Shown here: positions 17,623-59,080 of the stretch, one piece after another
Position numbering within the stretch: position 1 is the stretch's first letter
How the letters are laid out: every line of letters starts with the position of its first letter
Assembly: GCA_001244265.2 (NCBI GenBank)
Contig: LN717261.1
Span: forward strand, 1,565,591-1,629,590
From: Microbotryum violaceum
Taxonomy: Eukaryota
Direction: 5' to 3'
DNA: 64,000 nt
The notes under the pieces: generated by a model
Seen by the model: the letters and a program-made list of their open reading frames with translations, nothing else
Databases searched by the model: none
What the model was told of the DNA's origin: nothing
Position numbers and translations under genes: made by a program

Positions 17623-18425
<803 letters not shown>

Positions 18426-24359: not shown

Positions 24360-28439
<4,080 letters not shown>

Positions 28440-30707: not shown

Positions 30708-30709
30708 CC

Positions 30710-34549: not shown

Positions 34550-35597
34550 GTCGACTCTTTCGTAGAAGCGCGGCTAGGTAGCGGGATTTGAGTCGAGTTG
34601 CAGTATCAGGCATGAAACCCGGCATCCCGGGAATGGGTTGAAAGAAAGTCCCCACAAGACGAGAGACCCAGAGATCAGAAGAGAGATAATAAAAAGGAAA
34701 GAAAAGATACCAGCAAGGACTTTTTTTTTTTTTTTTTTAGAAGGGTGGGCGGGAGGAGCTCAAAAACAGGACACTTTGCTTGGAAAGCGTGGATCCTATT
34801 AGTACTCATAAATACTGCAAAGACTGGGAGGCTTGGCATACCTTTGCTTGGACAGCGTGACACACTTGAAAGGAGGGAACCGACCCTGAACGCTGGCACG
34901 TTGGGTGGCAAGTGTAGTCTGTAGCGGAAGGTAGCCAAGTAAGCCAACATGCCCAACAAGGACAGTTGTGAGCAGGAGTACCAAAAGGTAGAGCCTGATG
35001 CGGGGAGTGATGTACCTTAGCTCCGGGAGCGTGACTCGGTACTCAGGAAAATAAGGTGCGGCTACACTGGCAGGTGTAGGGCAGAAACGGCTGCATACAG
35101 GGTATGAACAGTCAGTCAACAATCCAACAAGGAAGGTTGAGAAGAAGAGGCGTACGCAGTGGGCAGCTGTCCGTCGTAGTCTGGCAGGGCAGAAGACTGG
35201 GAGGCAGTTGCGTGTTTGTATCGCTGGGGAGGTCCTGTGAGATGCTCGGAACCTGTCAGCCAGAAGGCGTGAGGGCAGGAAGAGATCTAGGACGGCAACC
35301 AACCTTGGCAGGAGGTGGCAAAGGTACGCAGCGAATACTGGTACGGCAACAGCAGGCAGTGCGGAACTGACCCAGTGCGGCGGGAGCGTGCTTGGGGAGA
35401 TTCCTGCGCGGGTGCGGCTTACGGGCCAAGGCTTATGCTCGAGGCAGGCGTGCGAGCACGGCTTACTGCGGGAGGCCTGCGTGCGGGCACGGCTTACAGC
35501 GAGAGGCCTGCGTGCGGGCACGGCTTACGGCTGCGGGTGTTGAAGTCGCGCGCGCTAAAGTCCTCAGCGTCAAACTCTTGCAGCAAAAGCCGAAAAG
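34550..35597 (-). repeat. ~1 kb dispersed repeat (Copia-associated LTR/leader family)
   Basis: Similar to 29710-30707. 34550-34720 is nearly identical to the region upstream of Copia gag (50288-50455). Confidence 0.65.
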
Positions 35598-35636
35598 CGA
35601 CTGGGGTCGGGCGTAAGTCGGGTGATGGGGTCGGGC

Positions 35637-35929
35637 TAAGCTCGACGCCCCTCCCTTTGGGAAGGGCTTGTGAGTTATCGGCGCGTTTGGCCCAGTTGCC
35701 CTCCGAAATTTTGGCCCTGAAAAGTGCCCCATTGCTGTAGCATGGCATATATTGGTGCTATCTGAAAACTGGAGGAATAAGTATTTACTTCATCATTAGT
35801 GATGATGCTTCACCGAAGCTTGAAGTCTAGGAACGCTTGATCATCTCGCTACAGCAGCTTGAATCAACTGATTCCGAACGAGACGCCGGTCGGCGCACGG
35901 ACCAGTCGTAGTCCAGTCCGCGTCGAAGG
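35637..35929. mobile_element. Detached terminal part (TIR) of the AcademH-like element at 53638-55770
   Basis: 35637-35711 matches 53638-53714. Ends in GTCGAAGG, the reverse complement of CCTTCGAC at 55763-55770. Confidence 0.7.
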
Positions 35930-38900
35930 AGGACCCATGAAAGCCCAGCCTGAGGCGCATAGGTAAAATCCGGGAAAATCGCCGTTTTTGGACCTCATTT
36001 GTCCACTATTTTTTGGGATTTTCGGCCAAAAAGGTCCCCAAAATGTCCAGTCCATCTACGCGCCTCGAAAAATAGCTCTAGAATTGCTTCAAATGCTCTG
36101 CAACATCTTCAAAAATCACGAAAACGGCGTCCGGACGTTTTTCGCTCGGGCCGAATCGGCGGAGCCCGCGCGCGTGTCAGCCGGTTTGGTTCTGCTTCGA
36201 CGAGGGCTCCTCATCTGCACTTGCTGCCTTCCTTTTTGACCCTACATCTTTCACGCCCTTCATTTGATTACTCAAGGACACAGAAGCGTTCCGTAATCCG
36301 TTGTAGCGTCGAAGAAAACAGAACCTGGCCTCAGCCTGCTGGCTTAAGTCGAAGACACGCTCCCCGAGGTATGCAACTGAATCCTGGGGTGCGAGAGTGA
36401 GGGCGGGCGTTGAGGATGATTCCAAGGATTGAATAATTTGTCGAGCATCAAGTCCGAAGAAGCGAGTCGTGCCGTCAATCATATGCGTTGAATAACGGCC
36501 CTTGCTCACAACTCGTAATTCTTGGAGGACGACATTCGAGAGTAATGCGAGGGAGTCGGTCTCCGCTCTGTCACAATGATTTGACGTGGCCTTGGCATAC
36601 ATGTAACGTACTACGAGAAGCAAAATCGACGTCAGTCAGTCTGCAAAGCATTAAGCTAGCTACAGTGAGATGCACAAACCAAGTCCAATGGACAATTGTT
36701 CTTCTCCTATGTTGCTGGCGTCACAACTGACAGGTATGATGCCTCGTTTCAATCCGAAGCAGACAAGAGAGCCGATTTTCAAAGGCATGGCTGACGTGAC
36801 GTTTCCGTCAATCGACCCAAACGTTGGGATCTTGGCGGATACCGTGTATTGCCTTGCTCGCAATTGCATCCGTACCTGGGCAAGAATGAACATTATTGAT
36901 GAGCACTCTCTGGGCGATATGTGCACAGCACACGATTGTAGCTCACTTCTTTACGTCCCTCTTCGATGTATCCTATGTTGTCTGTCTCGTTTGCGGTCGA
37001 AAAGCGACTGAAGGTCCCTTGTCCTGTCCAATGAATGGACCTCGCAACTCCTGACACAGCTTCGAGACGGGCTGCACCCATTGATTGCACTAAGCCTCGG
37101 AGGACACTGGAGTGCACTTCACCATGCTCGGACAATTGCGCTTTTGATGTGGGATCGAAATCTTGGGCAGTCGAGGTGGGGGCGCCGTGCCTTCCCTTGA
37201 GTAGGACAGCCTTGAGGTGGGCATATTGATGGGCCCGACGGTGCTCAATCAAGCTTTTCAGATCAAGCACTACCTGACAAGTGACGTGACGCAGAAGAGA
37301 TGGGAGCCGAAGAATTTGAGCCTGTGAAAGAGTGCTGGTTCTGTTTAGTCGTTCTGCAAGAAGACAGTCGCTGCTTAAATGAACCTACACGACCTGGCAA
37401 GCTTTCATTTGCTGTCTCAATGGCGCCGAGTAGAAAGCGTTCCTCTGCTTGAGCATTGGCCTCATCATAGGCCTGCTGAACGGCAAGCCTAGAATTGAAA
37501 GAGACGTATCATCAGTTCGGATGAGGCTGGTACAGGTCTCAAGCACTCAACTTACAGTGCAGCATCATTGTCAAGGCCAAGAGCAGCTAAAGAGCGAACA
37601 GCATTTTCAACTGACTTTCGCTCTTTCGGGTCCAGCACGACGAGACCTTGGCACGTTTTAGTTCGGATCCCATTGAGGGTCCGATCTAGGTCAGCGAGGT
37701 ACGAAACCGGATTAGTGTCCTCGGGCTCGAAATGCCAAGGTTCACTACCTGTAAGGGGCGGCATCAAATAGCTTTGCTCAAAACGAAGCCACAAGCTTGC
37801 GACACCCACCATTGACCGGTATCTCTTCCTCTACCTGGTTGGACTTCTGATAATGTATGGTATCCCACATTTGAAGACCAAGAAGGAGCTCTTCTGCAAG
37901 TCCTGCAGCAACCAAGCTTGTGGATCGAATCTCTTCATCATTTGGATAAGTCCGCATTGCGACAAGGTCGAGATCGTCGAGCCTGTCATACGTGGTAGCC
38001 TTGCCGCAAGCCTGCGGTCTCTGTTTTGAGCTTTCGCATCAATCCTAGGAGCGCAGTAACTTTGCTTGCCGACTAAAGGCCCAGAAATATAAGCTTTACA
38101 AGCAGTAGCTCATGTGAAACCCCGAAAGAAAAGATGACTTACCTGCAGGAATCCTAAAGCATCAAATTCTTGCACGACTTTGCGCAAACCGCCAAAAAAG
38201 TGCTCGACCATCTCCGTACCATGTCGCCAAGGTATGAACGCTTCTTCCGGCCAAAAGTCGCGGTAGTTCCGAATAAGGGCGATGTTTGTATCGACGACCT
38301 TTCGCATACCATCTAGGGTCTCCTTGGCTACAAAGGACTGCGCGTTGTACCCGGGACGATTGCGCATGAAGGTCAACCAGCCCGCAAATGTATAACGAAC
38401 CGTTAATAGCATCTTGATACGTTCAATCGGCTGCAATGACCTATTTTGTATCGCGTCATGAAGCTCGCCGCAGAGAAAGAGGAAGACGATGGCATTGGCA
38501 TCGACTTTGCCGTCCTCGTGAAGTCGGCAAGCAAGCGAGAGAGTAGCTTCGGAGAACTCTCAATGCGTCGCATTGTCATCTTGACGATCACGTCCAATCA
38601 CATCGCGTAGATACAAGGTCTTTGCCGACTCTTCGACGTCGAGCAGCGTCAACAGGTCACGATATCCGATGCATCCGGTGCCGCCGTATATTGCCCTGGC
38701 GCCTGAATCGCACGCGCTGCGGAGATTTTTGCTCAAGTGCTTTTCGTCCGGATCGAAGCACGTTGGAGTGTTGCCCACTTGAACGGATGCCAGTCGAATG
38801 GCTGGGAAGACTTTGTTGGGACCTGGAGATGGAATGACATGTGCAAGCTCTCGCCGACGGTTCCCCTCTCCGGTATACCCCTCATCGCCGCCAAGTCGCT

Positions 38901-39838
38901 CTGCCATGACGCGCTGCAAGAGGCCTTCGCTTGCCGCCCCATCCGCCGAGATGGAGGCAAGAAGATGACCTAGCCCAGCGTCGACAAGGAATTGAACAAC
39001 TGATTCAAATTCATCCGCAGCCTCGGATGAGCTTGTCAAGTCGCCAATCACGAATGCGGCAAGGTATTGAGCTGGGCAAGAGACATCGTTTGGTGCAAGC
39101 ATGTACACTCGAACCTATTCACAGAAGCGCCAGCAAATGAGCAACCAATCAAAGCACCATGCAGACATAGTCATTGACCTTGGTGCCAGCGATCGGAGGG
39201 TTCGGTCCCCGAAAGATACCCTCGAGCTCCCGCATGGTTTCATACACGATTGGCGGGCCAACCATGCCAATGAGCTTGTGACGAAAGATTTTCTGGCCGC
39301 GCAGGCGATCTTCCGCCTCCTTGTCCTTCGAATAACTCCGTGTTGTCCTGATTACTTGTCGCAGTTCCGTGTCGTCGACATGCACGTTGGAGGTCTTTCC
39401 ATCCGAAAGGATCTTTTGGACAACGCGCTGCATGTGGGGCTCATCTAAGCCGAACCTAGCTTTTCAAATGTGGCTCGGTGTTGTCTGAGAGGTTTGTAAT
39501 TGTCAGTAGCTTGAAGGAGTAACGGATAGCAGGTCTGAAATTGACTGAAGTGTGCGCATTGAGATTCCTCCAATTGTTTTTTGCACCACACGCAAGGCCG
39601 TGGGAGATGCCAGAGCCAGCGCGTGTTCAAAGTCGAGCAAAGCTTCGTCTTGCACATAGCCTCTCATGTCCTTGCCTTGTGCGTTTTGCCTATGCGTGAT
39701 CACGGCAACTTTTGCCATACCTTTCAGAATATTTGCTCCAGCAAGCTCGCCGACAATTAAACCTTGGGCGTAACAAAGATAGATCTTGCCATCCTTGGTC
39801 CCCAAGAGTATTAGAACCTAAAGCCGAGGCACGAGATA
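35930..39838 (-). mobile_element. P-element-like TIR transposon (AGGAC family) with an intron-containing DDE transposase; 5' part lost or displaced by Copia
   Basis: TIR AGGACCCATGAAAGCCCAGCCTGAGGCGC at 35930. Subterminal region matches the rc of 10880-11136. Motifs VDDT, SADG, DEKHLSKNLR, DRQDDNA, GTEMVEHFFGGLR. Confidence 0.75.
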
Positions 39839-42800
39839 TGTTTAGTACGAGAGCCAAGGATGATAGTAAAGACAGTTGGAGAAAGAAGGAAAGCGCAGAT
39901 GTAAGGCTCGGTTGCCTTACGCTATTTAACTACCCTTCTGATTTCAATATGCATCTATTGAAATTGTCAGTCTTTTGGACTGTGTAACCTAGTCGTGAAG
40001 GGCCTGGGGTATTACAACAGAGTAGGAGCGTGCAAGGCAAGCAATAGCCGCGCGAGGCGACTAATATCAACAACTAGTAACTAATCATGATCGGTAATAG
40101 AAGTGGGATGAAACAGCAATATACACTCTGACACCCCCCCGTGCTGTCATACCACTGCACCTCGTAAGCCCAAGTTTGTCCAATGGAAGATGAAGGGCTT
40201 GGGACCCAAGGCCTTGGTGAAGATGTTGGCAAACATGTTGCCAGTGGTGATGTAGCGGACCTCAATCTCTTTGTCAGCAACCCTCTCGCGGACGTAGTGT
40301 TCCGAGATGTGAACGTGACAAGATCCCTGATGGTTGGTTGGGTGTTGTGCCATAGCAAGCAAACATTCGTTGTCACCATAGAGCACGACTGGACCGGAAA
40401 CCGGAGCGCCGAGTTCGCTCAGGTGAATGGCGTCCCCGCTAGCATACGAAAGAGAGAGGTATTCCGCATCGGTAGTAGACTTGGTGACCCTGTGCTCCCG
40501 TTTGGAACACCAAGCAATGGCGGCTCCGGACAAGATGAATGCGTAGCCCATGGTCAATCGCGAGGTTGTCAGGCAGGCTCCCCAGTTTGCATCCAAGTAG
40601 CCATGGAGCGGTTGGTTGGTCTTGCGGTAGGTGAGCCCCAAGTCCAGCGTGCCTTTGATGTAGCGGAGGACTTGCTTGATGGCTGTCCAATCCTCCGGGC
40701 CGGATTGCTGCGAGAAGTGCGCGAGGTAGCTGACCACAAAAGCGAGGTCCGGACAAGTGCCAACTGCCGCGCACATTAACGAACCAATGGCCTGCAAGTA
40801 GCAAGTGCGATCCTCAGGGGTAGCAGACGAGTTCTCGAAATCGAGGACGACACCGGGTTGCATGGGGACGCTTGCCAGCTTGGCATCGGCGAATTGGAAC
40901 CTGGCCAAGATATCTCGAAGGTAGCGCTCTTGGGAAAGTGTGATGGACCCGTTGTGCCCGCGTTTGACTTGGATGCCAAGGATGTATTTGGCAGGCCCGA
41001 GACATTTGATACCATATGCGAGTTCCAACGCGTCAAGAACCTTATCAATCTCGGCGGTAGAGGGCCCAACCAACAGCAAGTTGTCAACGTACAAGGCAAT
41101 GTAATGAGAGTGCCCGTCGTGTTTGCGGCAGTAGATGCAGATGTCTGATTGGGTGGGCACGTATCCGAGGGAGCGCAAAGTCGAGTCAATCTCTGCGTTC
41201 CAGATGGTGCCCGCTTGGCGAAGTCCGTAGATGGATTTGGACAGCCTGAGGATCTTGCCAGGCATGTTGATGCCTTGTGGAACGCGCATGTAGAGAGGCT
41301 TGTCAAGTTTGCCATGGAGGTACGCCTTGTTGACGTCGGCTTGATGGACATGGTAGCCGTTGGCCGCGGCGAGGGCGATGAGAGCCCGAATGGACGTGAA
41401 CTTGACGACTGGGGCATAGTTCTGCTCGAAGTCAATGCCAGGGCGTTGGGCACAACCATGGGCAACGAGACGAGCCTTGCAATCGGTGATGTCCCCATGC
41501 TGGTTGCGTTTAGTTTGGAACACCCAGCCCGACTGTAAGAGGATCTCACCCGCGGGGAGCTCACAGGATTCAATGACTTCGAACATCTCATATTCATTGA
41601 GAAGTGATTCGAATTTGTTGTGTGCCGGGCCACCCCACGTGTCCTGTTGTCCCGATTGGATGACATTGCCCCAATTGGCTGGATCTCGGACAACAGATAA
41701 GTTGTGCTCCGCAAAGCCGGCTTTGGTGGACGCGAAGGCACGGAGCATGCCCTGGAAGGCGGGAGTGGGTCCATCAGGTCCGCCAACAAGGTCTTCCCAC
41801 ATGATGAGGGTGGGAACAAGTGGGCGGCGAGTCCGGGGGCCAGCAATGATGTTCCGAGCGTTGATTTCACCGTACTTCCCTGGATTGGGACCAACCTTGG
41901 CAACATTGCCGTACTCCCAAGTGGGCTTGACTTTGGCAAGTGGAGTTGGCTCCGGTGGTGCTGGTTCCGGAGGATGCTGCCGCAGGTGGATTGAAGAAGT
42001 GGCATCGTCGTCAAGCGAAGGCGGCTGGGTGGGTTCGACAAGCACGGGAGGTAACAGCGTTGCCGGAGCGTCGGCAGGTGGAGGACGGGGATAGAAACCC
42101 GGAACAGAAGGCGGTGTGATGCGGGCGGGAACGGTAACAAAGGGGAACTCGGTTTTGAGGAACATCACATTCCGGCTCAAACTCACGCGCATTGAGGAGG
42201 GATTGAGAAGGCGCCAGGCTTTCGCGTGTCGATCGTAACCCACAAAGACCAGCGGAATCCCTTTTGGGTCGAGTTTGTCCCGATGATGAGCCGGCACGGT
42301 GGCCCAGGCGCGACAACCAAACGCTCGAAGCGCTCCCACGGTCAGGGGGGCGCCTGACCAGCGACAATTTGGTACACCTCCCTTGAGAGCTGCATGAGGC
42401 GAAAGGTTCTTGGTGTGGATGTAATACATGGCAGCCTTGTCCCAGCACGTACGTGGGAGTCCTGAGTCAATCAGTAAAGCCAGGGTGCCCTCCACAATAG
42501 ATTGGTTGAGCCGCTCGGCTCAACCGTTTTGCTTGGGCGTGTACAGTATGGTCAATTCGCGACGGATCCCACGAGTCACGCAAAAACCATTGAAGGCGGT
42601 AGAGACGTGTTCACCGCCGTTGTCTGAGCGGAGCGTGTTGACCCTGCGACCTGTCTCGTTTTCGATCTCCATAAGCCAGTCCTTAAACGTCTGAAGGACC
42701 TCGCTCTTGTGCCCAATGGGGTAGACCCAAGTTTTCCTCGAGAAGTTGTCGACGAATGTGACGAGGTACCGTTTGTGGCTGAACGACTCCTCTGGAAAGG

Positions 42801-43030
42801 ACAAGACATCCGAGTGGACCAGTGCTAGCGGCTCCGAGGCGTGGAATGACAAAGGGGGGAACGGCAAACGATGGGCTTTGGATGCGAGGCGCGCATTGCA
42901 GGTGAAGTCTACACACTCGAGGTCACTATAGGTCCAATCCAAACCCTCCACCTGGCCAGAGGCCGCCAGTTTTTTAAGTGTCTGGACAGAGGCATGACCG
43001 TAGCGACAGTGAAGGGTAAGTAAAGGGATC
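39839..43030 (-). mobile_element. Ty1/Copia element A, 5'-truncated (GAG-pre-IN, IN, RT, RNase H, probable 3' LTR 39839-40133)
   Basis: [41 protein letters not shown](N), A(N)IFTKAL. G7 polypurine tract followed by TGTCAG at 40133. Confidence 0.9.
39900..40016. mobile_element. 117-bp TGTAA..TTACA mini element (solo-LTR/TRIM-like) inside the Copia A LTR
   Basis: 5-bp terminal inverted repeat; flanks GCAGA/ACAGA (4/5 match); second copy at 49366-49480. Confidence 0.8.
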
Positions 43031-43077
43031 CCATGGGACTTGGTGATCTCTTGGACGACAACCCCTTACCTCCTCAG

Positions 43078-43993
43078 TGCTTACGGCAAGATCAACCACA
43101 TCGCCAACAACGCTGGCTTCACATTTGACGAGATGCTCCACACCATGACCAACGACGCTTTTGAGCTGATCCTCAAGGTGCACCTCTCAGCCCCCTTCCG
43201 CATTGTCCGAGAGGCCGCCCCGTACCTGCGCGCCAAGGACCCCAAGGTCATTGCGACCAACCGAGCCATCGTCAACATCTCGTCGATCGCCGGTCTCCAC
43301 GGAAACGTCGGCCAGACCAACTACGCTACGGCCAAGTCCGGTATTCTTGGCTTCACCAAGACCGTTGCCAAGGAGTGGGGTATGTGATTCCTCTAGCCTC
43401 CTCGAAGAGCTCACTCGTCTGCTGACATCGCCCATGTTGACATCGCCCATGTTGCATAACCCACCCACAGGTGCGTTTAACGTCCGCTGCAACGCCGTTG
43501 CCTTTGGCTACATTCTCTCGCGATTGACCCGTGAGTCTAAAGACTCAATCTCAAGACAGGACATGGAGTGCTGAACATGGCTTGTTTTGCCGCTTCTCTG
43601 CTGCAGAGGCCAAGGAACTCGGCGAGACGATTGAAGTCGCCGGACAGAATATTTCCCTTGGTATTCCGACTGGCGGCAAGAAGCAAGAAGGGCCGGTTCC
43701 AGGGTGCATCTGAGTGAAGTCGATCTCCTAAAGAGAATTTGGCCCCTGACGACCTCCCTCCCAACTCCTTTTGCAGGATTCCTCTTGGTCGACCCGGAAC
43801 GGCCCAAGAGGCAGCGAACGGTGTCCTTTTTCTCATCTCCCCCTTGGCTTCGTACGCCATGGGTCACACACTTGAGGTGAGTGTCTTGAGTCGCCGACCA
43901 CTCTTGTTCCAATTTGTTCCACCTGTACGCGGAACTAATGATGTGGCTGTTTGATGGCTTGTGTTCCAGGTCACCGCCGGTAATGGTATCTAG
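43078..43993 (+). pseudogene. Short-chain dehydrogenase/reductase (FabG-like), 5'-truncated
   Basis: NNAG, IVNISS, YATAK (YxxxK), VRCNAVAFG, IPLGRPG, LEV|TAG. Introns retained. No N-terminal TGxxxGxG exon; it abuts Copia A. Confidence 0.85.
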
Positions 43994-45545
43994 CGAGGGT
44001 ACTTACCCGGCAGTATGAGGTTATACCGATCGAGCGGGAGTGGCCCGGCCCCAATAGGAGGTGATTTTCGCGATTTTTTTTTCTAGCCCGCAAAGAGAGT
44101 TATTCTGGCTGTCACAAGTGGAGGCCACTAGTGCTAGCCTCAATTACATGAAAGCTGGTTGGGGAAGAAGAACCTACTGCTGAGCTTGATATAAGCTGGG
44201 CTAAGCTGTAGCGGAGCATTTAGTCCGGCCAGTTACCAGGGCGCGCTTACCCCCCAGTCGAGCATAGCAAAAAGGCGGATATTTTGAGGATGGCTTTGGG
44301 ACGGGGTCGGGACGGCCATGGGATGCCCGAGGGATGGTTGCCATCCTGGGATGACCGTGGACGATCACGGAGCACTACCAGAGTTGGGCACCCCAACTCT
44401 GCGACCATCCCGGGACCGTCCCCTGACGGTCCCCGCGACAGGCACACCAATGCTGGGACCGTCCGGGGACCATCCCGGAATAAGAGATTGACGAGCGTGT
44501 AATCCAACCGTCATTTAACTGCATGCCGAAAGTGGCTGTGAAGCTAAATACCTGACGAGCGTGTAATCCAACCGTGGAGAGAAGACAACGGTTGGTGTGC
44601 ATCGCTAGGCTTCACTAAACAGACGAGCGCTTCTAAACAGATTACCAATGAACGCGCCATTCCTAACCCTCATTCCCAACACACCAACTCGCCCCTTCAC
44701 GCGATGAAGCAATAAGCCCAATCCCGTGTACAAACTGATAGTGCTTCTGAGTTCCGAGCCCTTTGGTGAGGACGTCCGCAGCCATGGTGCCTGTGGGCAC
44801 CCAGACCATCTCAATTGTGCCTTCCGCAATGTGATCTTGGATGAAGTGGAAATGGATCCCGATGTGTTTGGTGCGAGCATGGAAAGCCGGGTGTTTGGGT
44901 GTTTGGCCAGAGTGATAGCCGATTGGTTGTCACCCCTCAGACGAGTCGGCGATGTCTGCTCAAAACCAAGATTGGCCAGCAGCCGACGCAACCAGATCCC
45001 CTTACGAGCGGCGTACAACATGGCCACATATCTGGCCTCAGTGCTCGACAGAGTGACAAGAGTCTGATGTTTGGCTATCCAGGAGATTGCCCTGCCAGCG
45101 CACGTGAAGACATAACCCGAGACGCTGCGGCGGGTCACAGGGTCGGCACCATGGTCCGCGTCGACAAAACCTTCCAAAATGGCCAACATCGGCTGATGGG
45201 TTTTCTGGTATCGAATGCCAAAGTTACGAGTGCCGACAAGGTACCGGAGAATGTGTTTGAGCACCTCCCAATGTTCCGCCTCGAAGTTGTTACAGAAACG
45301 AGCAGCCTTGGACACGGCGAAAGCGATGTCGGGCCGAGTAGTGCCAGACAGATACAGAAGCTTGCCGACAATGGCACGGTACGGTATGGAAGCGGGGTCG
45401 AAATCAGAGTTCACACGGTTCCTCAGGGTCGACGGTGCCGCAAGCGGGGTGGGACGCGGGGAGGCGTTGGCCATGTTGTATTCCTCAAGAAGTGCATCCA
45501 CAAAATGAGATTGAGTAGCGATGGCCGCACCCGTTTTGCCCTCAC

Positions 45546-46346
45546 CTCGAGTGTGCGTTCCGAGATTGGGAGTACGCCGCAGGGAAGCGAGGCCCCTGCG
45601 GAAGGTATACCCCGCCCCTTGTCTCCAGCCGCGCGCCGGTGTTGTCGGCCACCCGCCCGCGCTGCAGACCGAGGTGTGTCCAATGGACTGTCACATGCTC
45701 CGTGACTTTCCCCGGAAATCTCTGGAATGTGTGTTTTTGTGCGAAGTAGGCCTGTTTCGCAGTTGCAGTCATTGAATAGGGGTGATCTGGGGTCGTGCGG
45801 TCGCGAGGGGGGGGGCCAACTTCGGTAACCGAAAAGGGGTTTGGAATCCGCGGTGGAGATCCAGCGCAGACGGGTACAAGGGGTATGTGATTGCTGCGGT
45901 CGCAGGGGGTTACATTCCCCTTTTGGACCACGTGAATCATTCGGATTGAGCGGGATGTTTGTGCCATCAGAGGCCTTGTTCGACGCGTCTCAAAGAATTA
46001 AGGGCCTCAAGGAGTATGGCAGTCTCAGGGGGGTCTGAAGTCAAACTGTACAACTATGATCGGATTCACCTGTACAACACATGTACCACCACCAACATTT
46101 CTTCCATCGTTTCCAGATTCCCCGTGTATTATCTTCAATCTTCCTTTCATTCGTCTCTGGGAGGGAGCAACCGTGGGTGGGGGGGACTTGAACTCGGATG
46201 TATTGGGTTGGTCTGTTCTGCTAGTTACAACGCATCGAGCGGCGGTTGTGGTCATCAACGTGCATACTGGGCAACATCACCTTTAGTTCCGTAGGGGGGT
46301 TTCTCGTCTTGCAAATTAGCGATGAGTTTCATTCCAAAAAAAAAAA
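45546..46346 (+). mobile_element. 5'-truncated non-LTR retroelement (second LINE-like family) inserted in Copia B RT
   Basis: A11 tail at 46336-46346. 6-bp TSD CCTCAC at 45540-45545 and 46347-46352. Removal restores [12 protein letters not shown]. Cys/His-rich remnant inside. Confidence 0.85.
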
Positions 46347-46750
46347 CCTCACGCATTATACTCTGACCCAGGAAGAAAGACACCTTGCCCGTGCTGCGGG
46401 CCTCAAAACGCGCCTTGAGCTGAGTGAGAACGCCGTCGAGGTCGCCGTCACCCGTGAGCAGTCCGTCGTCGACATGAATGGAAAGGAAACAGCGCTTATC
46501 CCCTTCCCTGCAAATGAAGACGGCATGATCACTGTCGGTACGCTTGAAGCTGATCAACAAAATCCACTCGGTGAAGACTTTGTACCACTCCCTACCCGCC
46601 TGGACGAGTCCGTACAGCGCGCACTGAAGGTGCACAACTTGCCCACTGGGCAGACGCATGTAGATCTCCGTTCCACCGAGATTGCCATTGAGGTATGCCG
46701 ACAAGACATCAAATTGCCAGGTCTCCCACTGTGCCGCCTCCCATCGCCTG

Positions 46751-46991
46751 TGAAAGGCACGAGATCGCTCTCGAGCCTCACTGGCGACCTAAGCTGACAG
46801 GTACAAGTTATATCGATTGCAACTAGCTTCTGGTGTCAGCCCAATCATCTACGACGAGAGTGCTGAGATATGGAACACCAGTACTCACCTAGCTTCTGCT
46901 GTCAGCCCCATGAGGAGGGAACTGAAGAATCTAGGTGCGCGTGATCTCTATTTCTAGTGCCTGTGGCCCGTAGTAAGGTGCGCGCCTTACA
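46751..46991. mobile_element. 241-bp solo LTR inserted in Copia B RT
   Basis: TGAAAGGC...GCCTTACA termini. 5-bp TSD GCCTG at 46746-46750 and 46992-46996. Confidence 0.88.
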
Positions 46992-49365
46992 GCCTGCTGG
47001 GCCAGTAGGCGAGAACGAGTCAATTTGCTCACCCCGACGCCTCTGCATGTCCCCATGCACAACGAGCCGAGCTTTGTACTTTATGGTTTTGCCCTCGGCG
47101 TCACGCTTCACCATGAGGACCCACATACTGCCAATCATGATAGCCCCGCAAGGGGGACAAAGCAGTTTGGAAAATGTTTGCTTCGCCACCAGTGCGCCCT
47201 CCTTGGTCGCCATGGCCACCAGCCAGTAGTTGCGGAACGGACCAGCGAGTGCCGCGCAAACGGAAGGGGTGTTGTCCTTGTCAACTTTGGCAAGAAAGGC
47301 AGTCGCTTCCTTGTACGAGTACAGCTGGACTTTGGGATCGTCCTCATCAAAGTCCTTGATCAAGACGGAGGCGTGCACGGCGAACTCCAAGTCATGAGCC
47401 GCGCGGGCGAAACCCAGATAGTCAGGGGGGCGACGAGCACGAGTGGAAAGATCACCCACCGGAGGGGCGTTCGCCGGACCCGGGTTGGAGAACACGAGGG
47501 AGGGCGGGACAGGTGGGGCCACAATGTCGACCGGACCAGCCGCAGGCAGGACAGCAATGGCGGGGGCAACAGCGGGAGCGACCGCAACGGCGGGTGCAAC
47601 ACCCGCAGGATTGACAGTATTGTCGTCGTCAGGGGGAAAGTTGGGCGAAGGAACTCTGCGCGGGATGGACGGATAGGACAGAACGGCGGGGGCAACAACA
47701 GTAGGTACAGGGTTTGCCGCGGCGGGGAAGAAGCGATCTTCAAAGAACTTGGCCTGAGATGACTCGAAGATCTTGTTGCCAACCAGGTCGTAGAAGCGGC
47801 AGGCCTTAGAGCGCAAAGAGTACCCAACAAAGTAGCACAGGCGCAAACGCGGAGCCAACTTGTTGGAACGTTGTTTGGGAGCAAACGGTACCTGGGCGGC
47901 GCAGCCCCAGGTTTTGACACGATCGATGCGGGGATGACGGGTGGACGTAACGGGACTTGCAGTGGCGTGAAGAACGGCATCAGGGGTGCGCTGCTGCAGA
48001 GGCGACAACGGGAGGAGGTTGATAACGTAGATGGCCGCCTGCGCAGCCTCTTCCCACAGCGATGACGGCAGTCCCGAACAATGAAGCCACGCCCGAACAG
48101 AGTTGAAAATCGTACGCCAACTCCGCTCCTGTATGCCCATCTGACCGCGCTTGTATGCCGCGGATAGCTCGTGAAAGATGCCCCGCTCAGCAAGCCAATC
48201 CCGGAGGTCGTTGTTGACGAACTCACTTCCCCTATCCATGCGCAAGGTCGCCACTCCCGGGCCAGCCAACATCGCAACGAAGCCATTGAGTGCGGACGAA
48301 GCCTCGCTCTTGAGCCGAATGCCGCGAGCCCAGCGGAAACGCGAGTATTCATCCGTGACACCGCACAGATATCGGACGCCGGAGAGAGCAGGGACAGGGG
48401 AAGGCCCCCACACGTCGGCAAAGACCCGAACGAAAGGTGCGTTGGCCGGGTGGTGGGCAGCCTCACGACTGGGGGCAGACACGGCCTTGCCGGAGCAGCA
48501 GGCATCGCACTGATCAAGGAGACGAAGTTGATCCCATATTACTGCAGAGATGTCGAGGGAAATGTCGCCCGACTTAGCAAGTTCTACCAAATGACCCAAA
48601 CGCTGATTCCAAAGCACTACATCTGTAGGCAAGGAGGTAGCTGTCAGCGCTTGGTGATCCGCCAGAGGTGGTGACGCCGGACTCGCCTGGAGACCGTAGT
48701 GGTTGCGATCAAGAGCAAAGGTGAGACTCGAAGCCAGACCCGAGACGGTGAGACCAGAGTGTTCGCCCGCGGTGTCACAAATCCCAGACAGCTAGTACCC
48801 ATCCTTCATGAGACTGGCAATAAAAATGAGCTCGGCGGACAGACCCGGGACAAGAAGGACGTTGCGGAGCTCGAGAGGTGCGCCGTTGGCATCAAAGCGA
48901 AGGGTGCCCTTGCGGACAGCCATGGCGCTGGACTTGAATGCGCTGACTACGCGCACCCACTCCGTCGTGAAAGGCTGGAAGTTGACCAAGAGATCCCGAC
49001 AAGTGGTCATGTGGCGTGTCGCCCCCGAGTCGAGGAGGCAGCGGGGACCGTCGTGCAAGTACAGTGCAGAGATTTCGGTGTCAAGGGCGACCTCGGCAAA
49101 ATAGTTCTCGTAAGAGTTGTCGTCAACCGATGAGTCGCGACCGTACTCAGCCACGAGCGCCATTGCGTCGGCCACGCCGATGGAGATGTTGTGCTTGGCC
49201 AAGACGGCAACCCGACGACGGGACAGTTAGGTCGAGGGGACGGTACATTCGTCGCCAAGACGACTCTGCTCGTAGCATTTCCGACACTGCGACGGGCCCA
49301 GCCTCAGGCGACCGTTCTGCGCAACGCCGTGCGGTGTCCACGAGACCCGGTCCCTTCGAAGCCGA

Positions 49366-49480
49366 TAAGGCTCGGTTGCCTTACGCTATTTAACTAGCCT
49401 TCTGATTTCAATATGCATCTATTGAAATCGTCAGTCTTTTGGTCCGTGTAACCTAGTCGTGAAGGGCCTGGGGTTTTACA
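49366..49480. mobile_element. Second copy of the 117-bp mini element, in Copia B gag
   Basis: Near-identical to 39902-40016, lacking the first TG; CCGA on both flanks. Confidence 0.82.
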
Positions 49481-51054
49481 CCGAGAGAAAACTGGACTTC
49501 GGTTTGCCTGACAAACGAGCGGGGCGCCTGCGACGACCCTGAGTCTTCGCCGCGAGGGCTTCGGCGACGTCGGTGCCGGAAGAGCGAAACATCGCCGCGC
49601 GACGAATCGCGCCCTCCACATCACTGAGCGACGGATAGGGCCAAGGGCGTCGATAACCGTGACAATAGGCCGTGGCATCCCCGCCTTCAAGAGGTCCATG
49701 CGGATGCCTTCCGACAACGCAGGCGGCGGAACCCACTTGTCAAACTCAGCTTGCGTGTACTTGACCCCGTCAATCTTGGCGCGCTGGTAGACCTTGTCGC
49801 GGGAAACATGCGCGGCGTTGAGATCAATGAACAGCCGGTTGAAGCGCGACAAACAAGGTTCGAGAGGGTCTCCATCGACGTAGGGTTGGTATTGGAAAAG
49901 AGCATCGAGTTTCTCCGACCGCGCGAAGTCGTGGGATGCGGCGCCGAGATCCTTATCGAGGGCCGCCCACAGCTCGTGCGTTGGCTGGTCTGCGATACGC
50001 GCGAACGTGGCCTCACCCAGGCACACGAACAAGATGTTGTGGGCCTGCGCCAAGGCTTGATCGAGGTCGTCGACGTCATGACGGTAATTCCGATGTTGTG
50101 TACGGAACGTGGCTACGTCGGCCACAGTGGAGCCACCCAGCGAACGGGTGAACTCGGACTGTTCGGGCTCGGGGCCAACACTGAGTTCGGTCGTGACATG
50201 CTTGAACCGGCCATCGCCCTCCAACACCCGTTGGAGCACCTCAGGCATGCCCAAAGGTACACGCCCGGTAGCGGCGCGAAGCGCGCTCGACTCTTTCGTA
50301 GAAGCGCGGCTAGGTAGCGGGGTATAAGTCGAGTTGCAGTATCAGGCATGAAACCCGGCATCCCGTAACAAACGGAATGGGTTGAAAGAAAGTACCCACA
50401 AGACTAAAGATCAGAAGAAAGATAATAAAAGAAAGAAAAAGATACCAACAAGGATTTATTTATTTATTTTATTTTTATTAACGCACCGCGGAGCGGCGAC
50501 CAGTCCCTGAACCTCCAGTGATCCAGTGCCGTCGATAAAGTCACACTACCATCCATGGCCCGAGGATAGGCAGTACCTCCTACTTAGCTGAAAGCGAATA
50601 ACCACCTCAAGACAAGGCTAGAAACTCTAACGACAAATCACAACTCCACATTTCATTCAATTTCGAGTCCATTTCGACTTTTCTTATCATCATCATCCAG
50701 ATATATCTATCTCTTTCGGTTTATCAAGCACGAGCCTTCCCCATCCTGCGGCTGGACCCAGCCGCGCGTCCCGAAGAGACTTCACGATCCTTGTCAGCGG
50801 CCTCTTCTCCGAAGTCATCGACTGCGTCGCGTGAGTCGGACTTCTTCTTGTTGTCAGTGACTGCAAAACCCCAAGAAATGAGCCGGCATAAAAGACGACG
50901 ACCCTGCGGAGCGTGATCCGCCACTACCTCCTGACGATGGTCACGAGTACCGGCCTTATCGTGTCGGTCGCACCCCGGGCCTGCTCGAGAACATTAACGA
51001 GGGCAACACTACCGGTTCGAACGCGAGCTCAGCGTCGCGTCGCCGCCCTCAGTA

Positions 51055-51420
51055 TTGTGTCCACAACCAGAGCTCATCGCTTTGGTTTCCACTCGTCATC
51101 CACCGCTTCCCAAGACCTCCAAGGCTGCGATGGCTTCGCCCGAGGCCGAGTCCTGGTACACTGCGTCGGTCAAGGAACTTAACTCCATGGGCTTGCACAA
51201 GGTGTTCAAGCTTTCGAGTCCACCTACTGGGGCTCGTGCCTTGGGCTATCGTTGGGTGTTTACTCGAAAGGAAGACGCCGAGGCCAACATCATCAGCTAC
51301 AAGGCTCAGCTAGTCGTCCAAGGCTTTGCTCCACGACTGGGGATCGACTACATCAAGACGCTTGCTCTTGTCTAGTCGATCACGACGATCTTGTTCATCG
51401 TCCGCCTTTGTTCCGCTCGT
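51055..51420 (+). pseudogene. Copia RT N-terminal fragment
   Basis: ALGYRWVFTRKED...YKAQLVVQGF..RLGIDY. Confidence 0.85.
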
Positions 51421-51659
51421 GGACTGGTCCTGACTTCTCGGCGTCACTGCCTCTCTTCTATCAGAAGTCTATCTTCCGCGCTCGCATGTTTTCTGCGATA
51501 GTTGTCAGTGACTGTAAAGCGCAAGAAACCGGAGGGTCTTCGGGCACGAGGCACAGTGGGTTGCGAAGAGCGTCGACTCCTCCATAATGCGCGCTGTTTG
51601 TGGCGTTTGTTTTAGGATGGAAGAACAAACGGAGGGTTTTGTAAACAGGAGTTATGAAC

Positions 51660-52400
51660 AAGTAGGGTGGGAGGGAGGAGCCCAAAAAACAAATAAATGG
51701 TCGATCGGCTTTGCTCAAAGAGCGCAGGTCCGATTAGTACCTAAACACTGCAACTGAACTGGGGGATAGGGCATACCTTTGCTCGAAAAGCGCAGGGCGA
51801 TGGCAGGGGAGGAAGGCGACGCGGTAGGTAGACGCGGCCAAACGAGGTCTGTATACAAGGTAGCCCCATGAGTCAACTTGCCCAACAAGGACAAGGAATT
51901 TGGCAACATGCCCAACAAGGACAGTCGTGATCCGGAATGCGAACCTTAGCTAGAAACAGCGAGCCGCGATAGTGCGAGTCTCGAAAAGTTCGCCCTTGCT
52001 CTACTAAGCAGTGGGTGCGATACGACCTTGCAAAGCAGCGGGTACGGCGGCTGCTTACAACGTAGTGGCAGGCTAGCTCATCAGTCCAACTGTCCAACAA
52101 GGGCAGAGGGCTTACGAGGGATGTTACCCACTTTGAGTGAGTAGAGACTGGCAGGGGGGTGCCGGAACCACATCACGAAACGCTGAGGCGTGCGGGACGA
52201 CGAGGGAGAGGGAGAGGAAGGGCCCGCGCGCGCCAGCAGGTGAGCAAGGCGGGAGGCCCAAGGGGGCCGGGAAGAGTGCGTGCTGGCACAGGGTCCAAAG
52301 AATGCGTGTTCGAAGAGTGGAGCGCGAGCGGGCCCCGTTAGGCCGAGACCAGCGCGCTTGAGCTGTCCGTGTCAAAATCTTGCAGCAAAGGCCGAAAAGA
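51660..52400 (-). repeat. Diverged member of the ~1 kb Copia-associated repeat family
   Basis: Shared blocks gggtgggagggaggagc, ggcatacctttgct, gcccaacaaggaca, tcttgcagcaaa.gccgaaaag. Confidence 0.6.
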
Positions 52401-54039
52401 CTATTCTCAAGTGCAGAGATCGCGGCATTCTGGAGGTGCTCACAGATGTTCATTTGCGCTCTGACTTGCGGCCTACAACGTATGATTCGAGGAATGGCGT
52501 GCTGCAATCATTGATCCGCGTGGTCTACATCGGCGGAACGACCTAGAGGGCCAGCCCATCTACTTCGCCACGGATGAGTCCTCCGTCCAGTGTTCGCTTT
52601 GCCCCGGCTGTTATCAAAGTCTCTTTACCTGAAAGCTGCGCCTATTAAGCCCGCTTGTTCATTGAGTAATCGTCTTTACCGGGCCATCGATCATCTGCCT
52701 CCGGATGTCAAGGGTTGTTTCTCAGGTGCAAGTCAGCTCGAACTGAGCCGTGTGTCGTCGTCAGCGCGGCTGCAGTGTCATTGTTGGTCGCCGCTCGTCG
52801 TCTGTTCTGAGTCATATTCTCTGTCAATGACCTTTCCTCTCGTTCACAAATCTCGTTGCTCAGTTCTGCTTGACACGACTCCAATGTTTTGTGCCGGTAG
52901 ACCGTGTGGCGGGGTACGCAATGCCGTCTGGGGACCAGAATGTCATTGGCTGTGCTTCGTTTGAAGATGTAGCCGCTCTCACATGCTGGACAACTCTCAG
53001 TGCGTGAAGACAATAGAATACGCAAAAACAGTTCTCTAGCCCTTGATCGCCGAATAGAGTAGCCTTGCAAGTTGTGAGTCTGACAAAGAATCTGCAGTTG
53101 TTCCAAACGAAGTTTGACGTTGGACAAGACGAGCTGTCGCAATGAGCACCTGATCACTAGATCGTCGTCAAGCGAATGTGAGGCAACAAACCTGTTCGGT
53201 CCATGATGAGTGTACTGTACTTGTTTGCCATGTTGGCAAGAGCGAATGCCTCTGGTCAAGCCAAGCTCCGAGATGCTGTCTAATGACTCGGCGTCGGGAG
53301 GCACGACTATGACACGTGAACTGGGAGAGATCGACATCGCCGCAGGGTGGGTGGACACAAATGCCACTTGATACCAATGACTAGTGTGTCGGACCGACTG
53401 AGCACCGTTCGTGACTGATGTACTACTCCACGGTGGAGGAGGGCTGTACCATGAGCTACTGAGATGTTGATGTTCGCACACAGCTATCAGACGGGCCGAA
53501 ACGCACGCCTAGTACAGGACTTTGCACTCCGTGCCATTCGCCGCCGTTCCGCGCCGGTCTGTGCAGGTCTGTGCTGGCTTTTGCCGGCTGGCTGTAATGT
53601 TGAGACCGTCGTCAATTTCCCAAACTCGCCGCCCCTCTAAGCTCAACTAAGCCCTCCCTCTGGGAGGGGCTTACGAGTTATCGGCGCGCTTGGCCCAGTT
53701 GCCCTCCGAAATTTCAGGGTCATTTTGGGGTGATTCTCTGTATCTTGGCAACTAGGCGCATTCGTGCAAAAGTGAGGAATAATTTTCTTTTTGTTCTCTA
53801 AAAATGACATACCCCAACTGGCGATATCTTTCATAAGCTGCGGGTGGAGCTACAACGATCCGAAGTTTGCGATTTTGGTCGATCGGGCCTCAAATGGTCC
53901 GAGCGCATCGTGTAATTGTCGCTCTCATCATCGGCGAGCCTACTCCGTTCGGCTTGATCACCTTGCGTACGCTTCGCTGTTCTCCTCTTTTCGCGATCAC
54001 CGTCGTCCACGTCAAGCGCGACAATATTTAAAACCAAAA

Positions 54040-55170
54040 ATGACCCGAACAAGCAGACACCATACCTCGTCAACTCGCCAGAACACCCGCCGCGAGGCGG
54101 ATCTGTTCGCTGAATTTCGTAGCCGCGATCTTTCGCTGTGTCAGTACCTGTCGTGGTACTTCAGCCCTTCCACACGCTTTGAAGGCGTTTAAATACACCG
54201 ACCAAAGCTGTTCAACAGCAACTGCTCCAGCCTCAAGCGTGTGCTTGATCTGATTCTACGACTTGCACGTGAGGATGGCGCCGAGTCAAGCAGCCGAATC
54301 AATGACTGGATCGCCGAGCAGGTGGGCAACACTTCGTACTTCTCGGATTGATTCTCCAAATTCGAAAAAGCTCCTGAATACTTGCCTTATCCGCGTGCAG
54401 GCCGACTCGATCATCATTAAAGAGATGAAGCGAACCAAGTCCGCCTTCGTCGCTAGTCATGACTTGACTCCCGAAGTCCACGCATCCGATTACATCGACG
54501 CCCGGCTCGATGCAATCGCCGAAGACAACTGTTTTATCAGCGGACGGATTCGTAACTTGCTATCACAATGCGGAGACCCACCACCGGCTGAGCCAATCAA
54601 TTGCGACAAGGACCCAACAGCCTCCACTGATATCGAGATGGAAGAAGCCACCCCGGAGAATGGTTCCGATCCAGAGCAAGAGCAAGAGCAAGAGCCTGGT
54701 CACGAAAAAAGGCGTATCGAGTTTGTGAGAGTTTCTGACCCTAGCTCGGCTGGGTATCGCAGCGAACTGACACCAAAGATCAACACGCTGGCCGCAGCTT
54801 TACCGCAGTGTCATGGGTCAGATCGCATTCGCTTGTAACCGAAGGAACAACGCCATGCAGCATCGCAACGGTCTCGTGACTTTCGCATGTGGAGCGAACG
54901 ACCGATTGACAACATTTCTGTAGGATTGCGGCTTGACGACATCTCGCTGGGCGACTCTCCAGGCAGCTGCGAGCTTGACGAAGGCGAATTCGACGAAACT
55001 GAAGGAGATTGGCTCGAACAAGTACTTCCATGTGACCGTCGACAACATTGGCGTCACACATCACGTTAACGATCAGCAATTAGATCGACGAACCGAGTTG
55101 CTTCATGGAACTTTTGGTTACGCCCACATTCAGAACGGAAATATTGCCGGCGCTGGAAATCAGCACGGAT
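54040..55170 (+). pseudogene. Putative Academ/DUF6589-like transposase N-terminal fragment
   Basis: RNNAMQHRNGLVTFACGANDRLTTFL*DCGLTTSR...YFHVTVDNIG pattern, recognised from memory only. Confidence 0.5.
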
Positions 55171-55189
55171 GTCGGTTCAGCAAGCCCAG

Positions 55190-55659
55190 TCGGCAGAAAA
55201 ACTCACCTGATGATTGCTCAGTGCATTCAGTGGACTGACAACAATGGTGACGGCCCGGCGTCCATAAATGAGATACATTGCTTCGAAAATCACACTTTTG
55301 CCTGAACCTGTTGGCGCTGTGACGAACACAGCGTCATATCGATCCCGGTTCGCAAATTGATCGAGTTCGAAAAGTGCAGCAATGGCCTCGATCTGCACAG
55401 GCCGGGGGGTAGAGTCCTCGTCAAGACTTTCGCCCAGAATAACTTTAATCTTCTTGCGTGATTCGCTGGAATCTCGTCGGTCCTCCTGAGTTAAACGTGG
55501 CCCCCAGTGACCGAGAACCGTTGTCGGTTTGGTTGAATGATTCGGTGCTGGGGTCGCAGGACTGGCCCTTGAAGCTGATCCCAAGGGAGACGCCCTGAAC
55601 TCAATTGACGGATGTTGACGGGGCGGTCCCCTTACCGGCCTGGGTGTTTGTACCGACAT
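55190..55659 (-). pseudogene. RecQ-like SF2 helicase N-terminal fragment
   Basis: PRPVQIEAI (Q motif), TAPTGSGKS (motif I), IVVSPLNAL (motif Ia); truncated afterwards. Confidence 0.8.
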
Positions 55660-56088
55660 GGCTCATGATGAGGGGAGGTGATGAGGGGAGGTGCGATGTT
55701 GAGTGGAGGAGAGAGAGGATGCGTGAGCCGCGGCCGGGCTTGAGTGACCTGGATCTATGCAGCCTTCGACAGGACCCCGAAAGCCCGGCCTGAGGCGCGT
55801 AGTGCCCGACTGGACAAAATGTGGGCCTCAGATGGGCCAAAATCGCGAAGGCGCGTAGTCGGAGGTGGACAAATCAGGGTGCGCCGTGTGGGTGGGGTCC
55901 TAGGCCCATAGGTGCCAGTGGACAAATCTGGGCCCATTTCAGCCACGTTCGGCTTGGTACGCCAGAGTTTGCCGACCCTCAAGAACGTGCGGAGCGCGCG
56001 CGAAACACTCTGGCCTGTACCGAATTCACAACAAGGGCTCTAATGGCTCAATTTTGCAATTATAAGCCTCTTGGCTGGTTGAACGAGG

Positions 56089-56376
56089 TGTAAGGGTTTG
56101 ATCCCTCAAGGGTCGCGAGAACTGCTACAATCGACTGTTGACGTGTTCGGTTCGTTTCAGGTTGATCTTATGAGGAACAGCGCAGTGAGCAAACGAAGAT
56201 GCCGAGTAGAAGAGGATAGGGAACGTTAAGGCAAAAGAGAGGGAGAGCCGCGCTAGTCGCTGCCTCGGGTAATCTAAGTCAGAATCTAAAGAGGTCCGAG
56301 CGCGCCCGAGTTCCCATCCCCAATCTCCGTATGCTGGAGTTGAGAGCGCCCCTGCAATGTAGTGTACACGTTGACA
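56089..56376. mobile_element. Possible LTR (TGTAAG...TTGACA) nested in the TIR element
   Basis: Homology to the 9746 copy stops at TGTAAGG; TG..CA termini; no TSD found. Confidence 0.4.
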
Positions 56377-56411
56377 GATCTCGTCTAAGTCGTCTAAGTT
56401 GTCTAAAGGAA

Positions 56412-59080
56412 CCAGTGGGAACCCGTTAAATTAGCGGAGGATGAAATTCAAAAAATAGCAGGATAATCGAACAGTCTACATGATATCAGCGCAGAGGTTA
56501 AGAAAACACAATACGAAATACAGCAAAGAAACAAAATCCATTCATCTTACATTCATTGCCGAAACAGCCTGCATGTCGCTTGTTGCTGGACTTGGCTTCA
56601 AACACTCGTGCAATGAGATCCGGACGGTTGCATGCTTTATCGGCCCCAGTGCAGCCTTGATTTCCGGTGAGTCGGGGTCGTACGTCATCGTGATGAGCAG
56701 CGGAGGCTTTCCATGTTTGACAACGCACGCCATCGCATCCTGGTATCGCTGCGTGATGTCGCGATTTGGTTCGGGGTCAAGCCGTTGATGCCTTGGGTCG
56801 TGGTGAGGCGTAGGTTCTCTTGATGTAACCGGATGCGTTGAGTCAATCGGTCTTGACTTGGGAGTACATCCGTAATTCACGAACTCCAGGAAGGGACGTT
56901 GGGTGCAATGCGTGATTGAGAAGTACTCGTCGCGTTTGGCAAGTAGTGCGCAAAGAATGGTGAACGCGAGACTCGCCACCTCGACCCCTTTACTTGACCT
57001 TCGTCCTAGGTGTTCAAAAGTTCAATGTCAGTCTGTGCTTGCGCCTTCGGCAGAATGGAACATCAGAGAAAGAGCCGAAGACGCGTACGTTCGCCATCAC
57101 CATCCTCTTCGTCCCCTTCCTCGCCGTCTTCATCCTCATTGTCGCGGTCTTCGTCCTCCTGTTCGTCTTCGTCATCTGGACCAAGGCTGTCAAGTAGCTC
57201 GCGCAATTGGACACCATTGTCGATCTGCTCTCGGTTTCTGGCGATGGGCGGCCCAGCTTGGTTGAAACCGCAAAGAGGAATGTTGGGGTGGAAGCCATCT
57301 TCCCCTGCAGGAAAAAGTAGTGTGTAACGGAGAGGCATCGCGGACGGATGGAGCGAGCTAACGATTTGGTACTTGGGCCGACCATCGGGACATCGATCAC
57401 TGTGCACCTGGAGAATACGGTCTTAAGGTCCACGATCTCCCATGTTGGTGTCGGAATCGCAGATAAGCATCGCCACTTCCGTGCTTGACGTAGGAAGGTT
57501 GTGGGTAGGTCGGTCCCGGCTTGGCGGGAGGCAGAGGCGCAGGATCCACTCTTTGGCCGTATCCCAACCTGCGCGAGCTTTGGCCGATGCGAACTCCCTC
57601 ACAAAGTGATTGCCGGTGCGCAGAATGGACTCGAGCTTGGTCAAAGTAGATCGTTGCATGTGACTGTCTGCGCCGTCGGGTCCAAGTCGAGTGTCGGTGG
57701 CCTCGGCCGGGTCGATCAGCCATGTTTGAGCAAAGGTTGGGCGTTGAGTCACGGCAGGGATCAGGGCGCCGAGTCGATGGTAGAGGCGACCAAACACGCG
57801 AAACACGGGGGGTCCTAGCGTGCCCACTTGAGTTTGGTCCCAGAGGGCAGCGAGCGAAGTGAACGACAATGCGTTGTTGTACGACCGGGCATTCTCGCGG
57901 AATGCTTTAGCTTCTGTGTGGGTGGGTAGAACAGTTCAGCATGTGGGTCTACTGCAGACGAACGTTGTTGGACGGAGCAACTGACCGCTATCCGAGCCTT
58001 GAAGAAGCTGCCGATACTCGAGATTGGGCTGGGGAGGGGGAGGTAGCCGCACCTTGCCCTGCGAGCAGCACGCGCTGAAGTGTCTGGTCGACTTCGACCT
58101 TTCGCACTCCCAGTGCCGAGCCTTGCAGTGGGTGCACACGGCCGTCTGGGGGCCGAGGTCGTCGCGGATCGAAACGTGGGCTTGAGGGGTCTGAGCGCGA
58201 TTCGAGCCCGGCGCACTCGCCTTTGCGGAGGTGGTTGGTGGGGCGAGCCCAGCGTCGAGTTGGCCATCGCGCTGACCACGCTGTCCGTTCTGCACAGCTG
58301 CACGGCGGGGTCGTATACGTGTCGCAATGCCAAGATCGGTTGAATTGTTGTCATGACGCGCCGGGGGGCTGATTCTGTTGATCGGAGCGGGACGAAGAGG
58401 AGGGTCGAGCCGCGGGGCGCTCAGGCAGGCCCATGGTAGCCCATGGTACGGCGCTACCCTCGCGCCCAAGACTTGGCGAGGTTGCGATGGCCCTCCCTGA
58501 GTCCCTGGCGACCTTGGGACCGGGACATAGCAGCGAGGGTTTGTTCTTGAATGAGTATCACTAAAATTGGATGAGAGTGAGAGGGAGAAAGGAAAGGTTC
58601 GAGGGAGTGGCGCAGGATTATCTACGTGGTTTGATTTGTTGTTCAGCCCCTAATGCCGCTGGTCGACTGCCGGAATGACACTCCACCGCCGGCGCACCGC
58701 ATCACGTGACAAACGCCAGCCCTCGCCTCGCACGTCAGGCAGAGCTCTGCTGTAGAAGCAATATCATGCAAAGCCACGCACTTGCGGTTCATTAAATGCA
58801 ATATGAGTGGAAGCATTGTTTTATGTCAGCAAAAAAAAGAAGGAAAATACTGGGAGCGTTGTAGCTTCGTTGGAACGGCGCGGAAAATACAAAAGTCACC
58901 ACAGGGCTTGTACATGACTTCTGATCGGAACCCCAACACCACAGGCAGGTGCGGTAGACACAACAGTATGCTGGTACATCCACCACAGGCGGCCCTCCAG
59001 GCCGCAACCCAGTTAAAAACAGTGATTTTAGGTTCATTCCTTAACTCACCTTTTTATTTATTTATAGAGGTAGTAAGAAA
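56412..59080 (-). mobile_element. Non-autonomous Helitron (family of 1464-4065)
   Basis: Colinear with 7594-9720. 3' CTGG|T at 56415-56411. 5' portion diverged; boundary approximate. Confidence 0.85.

Follow-up and report, generated by a model that had tools for sequence, protein, structure and literature searches.

A 64,000-nucleotide stretch of the Microbotryum violaceum contig LN717261.1 (GenBank assembly GCA_001244265.2, positions 1,565,591 to 1,629,590 of the forward strand) was analysed. This whole stretch is called the window, and all positions are given in its numbering. In the window, a nest of eukaryotic repeats, Pfam searches identified Ty3-type and Copia-type polyproteins, a Pif1-type helicase and one host-like gene, an FGGY kinase at 31.0-33.1 kb. 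Among named proteins, those most closely related to the transposon proteins belong to Microbotryum species (anther-smut fungi). The subject of this work is a pair of copies of one transposon family, AGGAC. The two copies, designated A and B, lie about 20 kb apart, and each is preceded by an octamer and by a part of another repeated element, designated H.

The AGGAC copies and their flanks

The following features were found at the two ends and in the copies used for comparison (TSD, target-site duplication).

35922-35929: GTCGAAGG, candidate half of a swapped 8-bp TSD (flank reading)
35930-39808, minus strand: copy A, AGGAC, autonomous type, reversed; right end at 35930, terminal repeat of about 33 bp, body extending rightward
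36534-39808, minus strand: transposase pseudogene of copy A
55763-55770: CCTTCGAC, candidate other half of the 8-bp TSD (flank reading)
55771-60276, plus strand: copy B, AGGAC, non-autonomous type; left end 55771-56038, right part 59193-60276
56404-59064, plus strand: repeat X nested in copy B, right terminal repeat missing
9738-11144, plus strand: small AGGAC reference copy (9746-11136) with TACGCTAT on both sides (flank reading)
2041-2048, minus strand: one TACGCTAT, the empty site of the small copy, in a paralogue of repeat X that has no interruption

The octamer GTCGAAGG abuts the AGGAC terminus AGGACCCATG... that starts at 35930, and CCTTCGAC abuts the terminus AGGACCCCG... that starts at 55771. 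The two octamers are exact reverse complements (8/8 bases), and the ninth base is mismatched. When the termini were aligned with those of the small copy, the end at 35930 proved to be of the right-end type (terminus 11136, reverse complement) and the end at 55771 of the left-end type (terminus 9746). Both termini are complete to the last base and read AGGAC on the plus strand, with the body of the element to the right; right and left ends of the family have about 33 terminal bases in common. The flank letters and the end alignment confirmed what an earlier note on this DNA had described, a right-type and a left-type end preceded by reverse-complementary octamers, and support its proposal that these ends resemble the opposite sides of a single insertion.

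The terminal motif occurs five times in the window (0.03 expected), and three of these five ends are unpaired. The target octamer occurs four times, counting both strands of the 64 kb. By our own arithmetic, a mirror match is expected by chance at about 3e-5 per comparison and about 1e-4 over the few possible pairings. With a value of this order, and with the joined form of the flanks found independently in contigs (see below), a fortuitous match of the octamers can practically be dismissed.

The length of the duplication made by the family was read from the small copy, which carries TACGCTAT on each side, and from the empty paralogous site at 2041-2048 in the same window. The two together bear out the earlier statement that the family makes 8-bp TSDs. 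Members of the P superfamily (P element/THAP9-like) have terminal inverted repeats and TSDs of 7-8 bp (P length). On the coding side, the superfamily is recognized by a transposase with a TNP-like RNase H fold and an insertion domain. The AGGAC family resembles it at the termini, with about 33 shared bp and an 8-bp TSD for which an empty site is at hand. A Pfam search with the AGGAC transposase (P0002) returned no family, one relative matched Tnp_P_element at E 0.078, under the Pfam cut-off, and a PDB profile search gave no match. The AlphaFold2 (AF2) model was poor (pLDDT 45). In the ESM Atlas all of the ten best named clusters were TNP-like/THAP9 families (score at most 0.96, TM 0.46-0.61). 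Because of these clusters, the terminal repeats and the 8-bp TSD, a cut-and-paste family of the P superfamily with a P-element/THAP9-like transposase is the best lead, not a proven assignment. In Galileo the TSD is 7 bp long, according to the available part of PMC2775673.

Copy A, copy B and the small copy are 90-93% identical in pairwise comparisons. Transitions between them barely exceed transversions and few changes lie at CpG; this spectrum gives no hint of a strong point-mutation process by which the copies could be dated.

In copy A, residues 14-854 of an 862-residue Microbotryum protein (77% identity) are collinear with 39808-36534 on the minus strand, and the pseudogene has three in-frame stops in 37552-39114. 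BLAST searches with the small copy and with 39700-40200 against copy B and the window found no left end of copy A in the window. Similarly, none of the five terminal-motif occurrences is a left-type end between 36 and 55.7 kb, and a search with the first 13-30 residues of P0002 gave 39808 as the sole match. Copy B is collinear with the small reference copy but is truncated 69 bp short of the right terminus. Copies A and B share about 0.7-1.1 kb at 89-90% identity in opposite orientation, and the likeness stops at 37057/59548. This point is read as the internal-deletion edge of non-autonomous copies, because in copy A the transposase pseudogene extends beyond it to 39808. The same continuation ruled out 37057 as a rearrangement breakpoint, and the breakpoints that the earlier note had placed inside the copies, at about 36-39 and 56-60 kb, were left without support.

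Copy B contains a discontinuity near 59064, since the nested repeat X lacks its right terminal repeat. Another reading, in which a single element was split and repeat X contains a second breakpoint at about 59064, was unsupported, as there is no X-like sequence at the right edge of copy A. Repeat X is about 3 kb long and has terminal inverted repeats of about 150 bp. It is present in three copies (7595-11997, 1416-4066 in reverse, and 56404-59064), one of which hosts the small AGGAC copy and another of which is the one nested in copy B. A terminus of repeat X forms a foldback at 11702-12000.

Element H and the joined form of the flanks

The sequences to the left of the two octamers, with the repeat that lies beside one of them, are these.

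53637-55762, plus strand: left part of the multi-copy element H, up to the target site
35636-35921, minus strand: right part of element H, apparently now inverted relative to the left part
55180-55659, minus strand: helicase N-terminal fragment (DEAD motif I region) in H
34537-35597, plus strand: copy of repeat U beside the right end of H; further copies at 50273-52399 (with an insert) and 29710-30715

The direct repeat of about 75 bp on which the earlier note had based the rejoining of H is real. The segments 35636-35711 and 53637-53714 are 87% identical over 78 columns (68 of 76 bases compared), with a sharp outer edge and a weaker likeness that extends inwards to 35805/53807 (125/167 overall). 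Taken together, the terminal likeness of H amounts to 75-170 bp at 75-89%. Between 35806-35921 and 53808-55762 no likeness was found in either orientation, and the window holds no second copy of either half. A caveat on the 75-bp repeat is that both termini of H follow similarly oriented copies of repeat U, 38 bp and 1237 bp downstream of them; with this arrangement, a restored H would sit between inverted copies of U. Each terminus of H also contains, a few bases from its outer edge, a palindrome capable of forming a hairpin with a stem of about 10 bp (53640-53670 and 35645-35670).

Of the 12 frames in 53.8-55.7 kb, one, the first exon-like open reading frame (ORF), matches Pfam DEAD at E 4.5e-06 (26.9 bits, cut-off 26); the other 11 gave no Pfam match. 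The coding content of H is thus about 150 residues of the N-terminus of a DEAD-type helicase, without a transposase. Seven proteins were found with the helicase ORF, six of them short Microbotryum predictions from different contigs (53-95% identity). These relatives align at 55659-55186 and in two short pieces only; one of them additionally matches 54136-53834. No convincing TSD was detected for H, the flanks of 53637 and 35636 agreeing at 6 of 10 positions in C-rich sequence.

These data do not sustain the label AcademH-like that had been given to H. Like an AcademH element, H is a repeat with helicase-like coding sequence in a basidiomycete. It differs in having only the helicase fragment instead of a transposase and a full helicase, and in its short terminal likeness. 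Nor was a TSD of 9-10 bp found, the length given for AcademH in the available text of PMC10045372; the AGGAC family itself makes 8 bp.

Contigs of four of the 21 listed public runs (X1, X2, X8 and X20) were compared with 35790-55789. Among the matches listed, one contig of X8 links 35929 and 55762, which lie on opposite strands, through 8 common letters, its shorter side being 20 letters long. One contig of X20 makes the same join with a side of 31, and a further X20 contig links 35928 and 55763 through 7 common letters, again with a side of 31. A bar of 31 letters for the side is reached by the two X20 contigs only. These three contigs show the target uninterrupted and may come from this locus or from paralogues; the contiguous form of the flanks, whose absence the earlier note had named as refuting its reading, therefore exists in contigs of two of the four runs. 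Neither a 20-mer at the target nor a 25-mer of the H terminus found any match (0 hits for both) when metagenomes were scanned. The depth of the joined contigs in X20 was 240 and 584, compared with 224 for a 12.5-kb contig; by depth, the joined form looks like one to a few copies in X20 and several in X8. The summed depth over 53.8-55.8 kb was several-fold that of long contigs in all four runs, and H is a multi-copy element.

Since contigs of two runs join them on opposite strands, the two flanks, as far as their sequence tells, formerly made up a single sequence that belonged to a multi-copy element with a helicase fragment. This agrees with the earlier proposal that 53637-55770 and the reverse complement of 35636-35921 make up one repeated element.

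The abundance of H gives room for an explanation without any rearrangement: an AGGAC element could have inserted into each of two opposed copies of H, both times at one hotspot octamer and in the same relative orientation, after which deletions removed the far halves. The multi-copy depth of H, the occurrence of the six related Microbotryum proteins on different contigs and the missing far ends of A and B all fit such a history. However, it requires that both the site and the orientation coincided and that two deletions followed, and the window contains no remnants of the other halves of H. We regard it as unlikely.

The probable inversion and its possible mechanisms

35930-55762, no strand: segment that would be inverted if both TSD junctions are breakpoints

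If the contiguity of H is restored, the DNA between the two junctions must be flipped. Because both ends look like one insertion and the flanks like one repeated element, an inversion of about 19.8 kb (35930-55762) relative to the flanks is the most economical reading, and a likely one. By Pfam, the segment holds only transposon and retrotransposon sequence. The same arrangement could be produced by a wrong join or orientation in the assembly, and the region is indeed a nest of repeats. But copies A and B, about 90% alike over less than 1.1 kb, are too unlike to confuse an assembler, and the junction sequences are unique, so that an assembly error seems very unlikely.

In alternative transposition of the reversed-ends or hybrid-element kind, known for maize Ac/Ds and Drosophila P, ends of different copies insert together. 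Reversed-ends transposition results in an inversion with one TSD copy at each of the two new junctions. The Ac/Ds and P cases were caught in pedigrees in which the parental allele was known, whereas the present event is inferred from one old, decayed fungal locus. In the available text of PMC2775673, two known routes are given to mirror-image TSD halves beside a right and a left end, ectopic recombination and aberrant transposition; the latter uses the ends of two copies (hybrid element or reversed ends), and the P superfamily is cited there for rearrangements of both these kinds. The event would thus belong to a known kind of transposon-made inversion.

It is possible, and we suggest it tentatively, that the AGGAC ends themselves made the inversion by reversed-ends transposition. 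Copies A and B would formerly have stood side by side in the same orientation, and the transposase would have used the right end of A and the left end of B as a pair. Both ends would have been cut free, with loss of the piece between the two copies, and the end pair would have inserted into CCTTCGAC within a copy of H about 20 kb away. Everything from the target to copy A would be flipped in this one step, no other breakpoint being required, and each new junction would be left with one copy of the 8-bp duplication in mirror orientation. The locus has this arrangement: one TSD copy is present at each junction, beside the right end of A and the left end of B, which belong to different copies and, moreover, to different types (A autonomous, B non-autonomous).

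The earlier note had attributed the inversion to ectopic recombination between opposed AGGAC copies. Its inversion stands as the simplest reading, and ectopic recombination is one of two mechanisms that can give the scar. In this case an AGGAC copy would have inserted at CCTTCGAC in H, and a crossover with an opposed copy about 20 kb away would have flipped the segment and exchanged the flanks. The scar would be identical, and opposed copies do stand at the two breakpoints (A reversed, B forward), with the shared stretch described above; the mechanism was shown by exchanged TSDs for Galileo, also of the P superfamily (PMC2775673, available part). On the other hand, ectopic recombination should leave two copies that are both complete and chimeric, together with another exchanged TSD pair. 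One TSD pair is exchanged at the junctions. The second pair is unreadable because the left end of A and the right terminus of B are absent, and for the same reason two further losses would have to be assumed. The present identity of about 90% is also low for recombination, though the divergence may be later. Ectopic recombination is therefore a possible origin, but we lean slightly to reversed-ends transposition, which requires neither of the two missing ends and no further breakpoint or loss.

Among the closest parallels are the Galileo-mediated inversions 2j, 2q7 and 2z3 of Drosophila buzzatii, where, in the part of PMC2775673 available, opposed P-superfamily transposons with terminal inverted repeats lie at both breakpoints and the event is read, as here, from mirror-image short TSDs. 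They differ from this locus in that both TSD pairs were exchanged, the copies were shown to be chimeric and the non-inverted chromosome was in hand. Here one TSD pair is available, and the standard arrangement has not been observed at the locus.

Several points weigh against an inversion made by reversed-ends transposition. Nothing in the window separates it from ectopic recombination, since the lost piece between the elements would leave no trace. Copy A is now a pseudogene, and activity of the family at the time of the event is assumed. The joined contigs are short and, by depth, look partly multi-copy, and may represent paralogous copies of H rather than the ancestral allele. No contig with the joined form was among the matches listed for X1 and X2, which is not evidence of absence.

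Neighbouring repeats and significance

Other repeats were recorded in the window. The three copies of repeat U are direct, 64-82% identical, and have their left and right edges in common. A contig of X1 joins the end of U to its start, and U may be tandem elsewhere. Similar G-rich 20-mers flank the copy at 34.5 kb. The copy at 29710-30715 adjoins an AGGAC-like terminus that ends at 30865, just upstream of the FGGY kinase gene; 30716-30865 are the terminal 150 bp or so of a second, related family, with a terminal motif differing by two mismatches and repeated subterminal motifs of the AAAATGTCAA type.

A unit of about 118 bp, TG...CA, is present twice, at 39900-40017 and 49364-49481, with 95.7% identity over 115 bp (39902-40016 and 49366-49480). 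In other runs there are contigs that lack one copy or the other independently. Each copy may therefore be a small insertion of its own or a solo long terminal repeat (LTR), and the pair is a doubtful candidate for the LTRs bounding one retroelement. A Ty3-type LTR retrotransposon occupies 12148-17921; its LTRs of about 300-375 bp are 98% alike, and a third copy of the LTR is found reversed at 28037-28410. Finally, a block is duplicated about 25.5 kb apart (1-1100 and 25532-26470). Its first 248 bp are 100% identical and the remainder 84-94%, and it contains internal repeats at 141-bp spacing.

The direct effect of such an inversion would probably have been nil, as it would have flipped only repeats and no host gene was seen to be touched. 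If the interpretation is true, a P-superfamily element of a basidiomycete would have produced a natural inversion in one step by reversed-ends transposition, and one window would suffice to read it, both junctions being halves of one TSD. It would also mean that cut-and-paste transposase activity, besides homologous recombination, reshapes repeat-rich regions of fungal chromosomes. In anther-smut fungi, rearrangements and the build-up of repeats are studied in connection with recombination suppression. A case at the level of the breakpoints would offer a concrete mechanism for small inversions in these fungi, and a family to seek at other breakpoints: P-like, with AGGAC termini and an 8-bp TSD.

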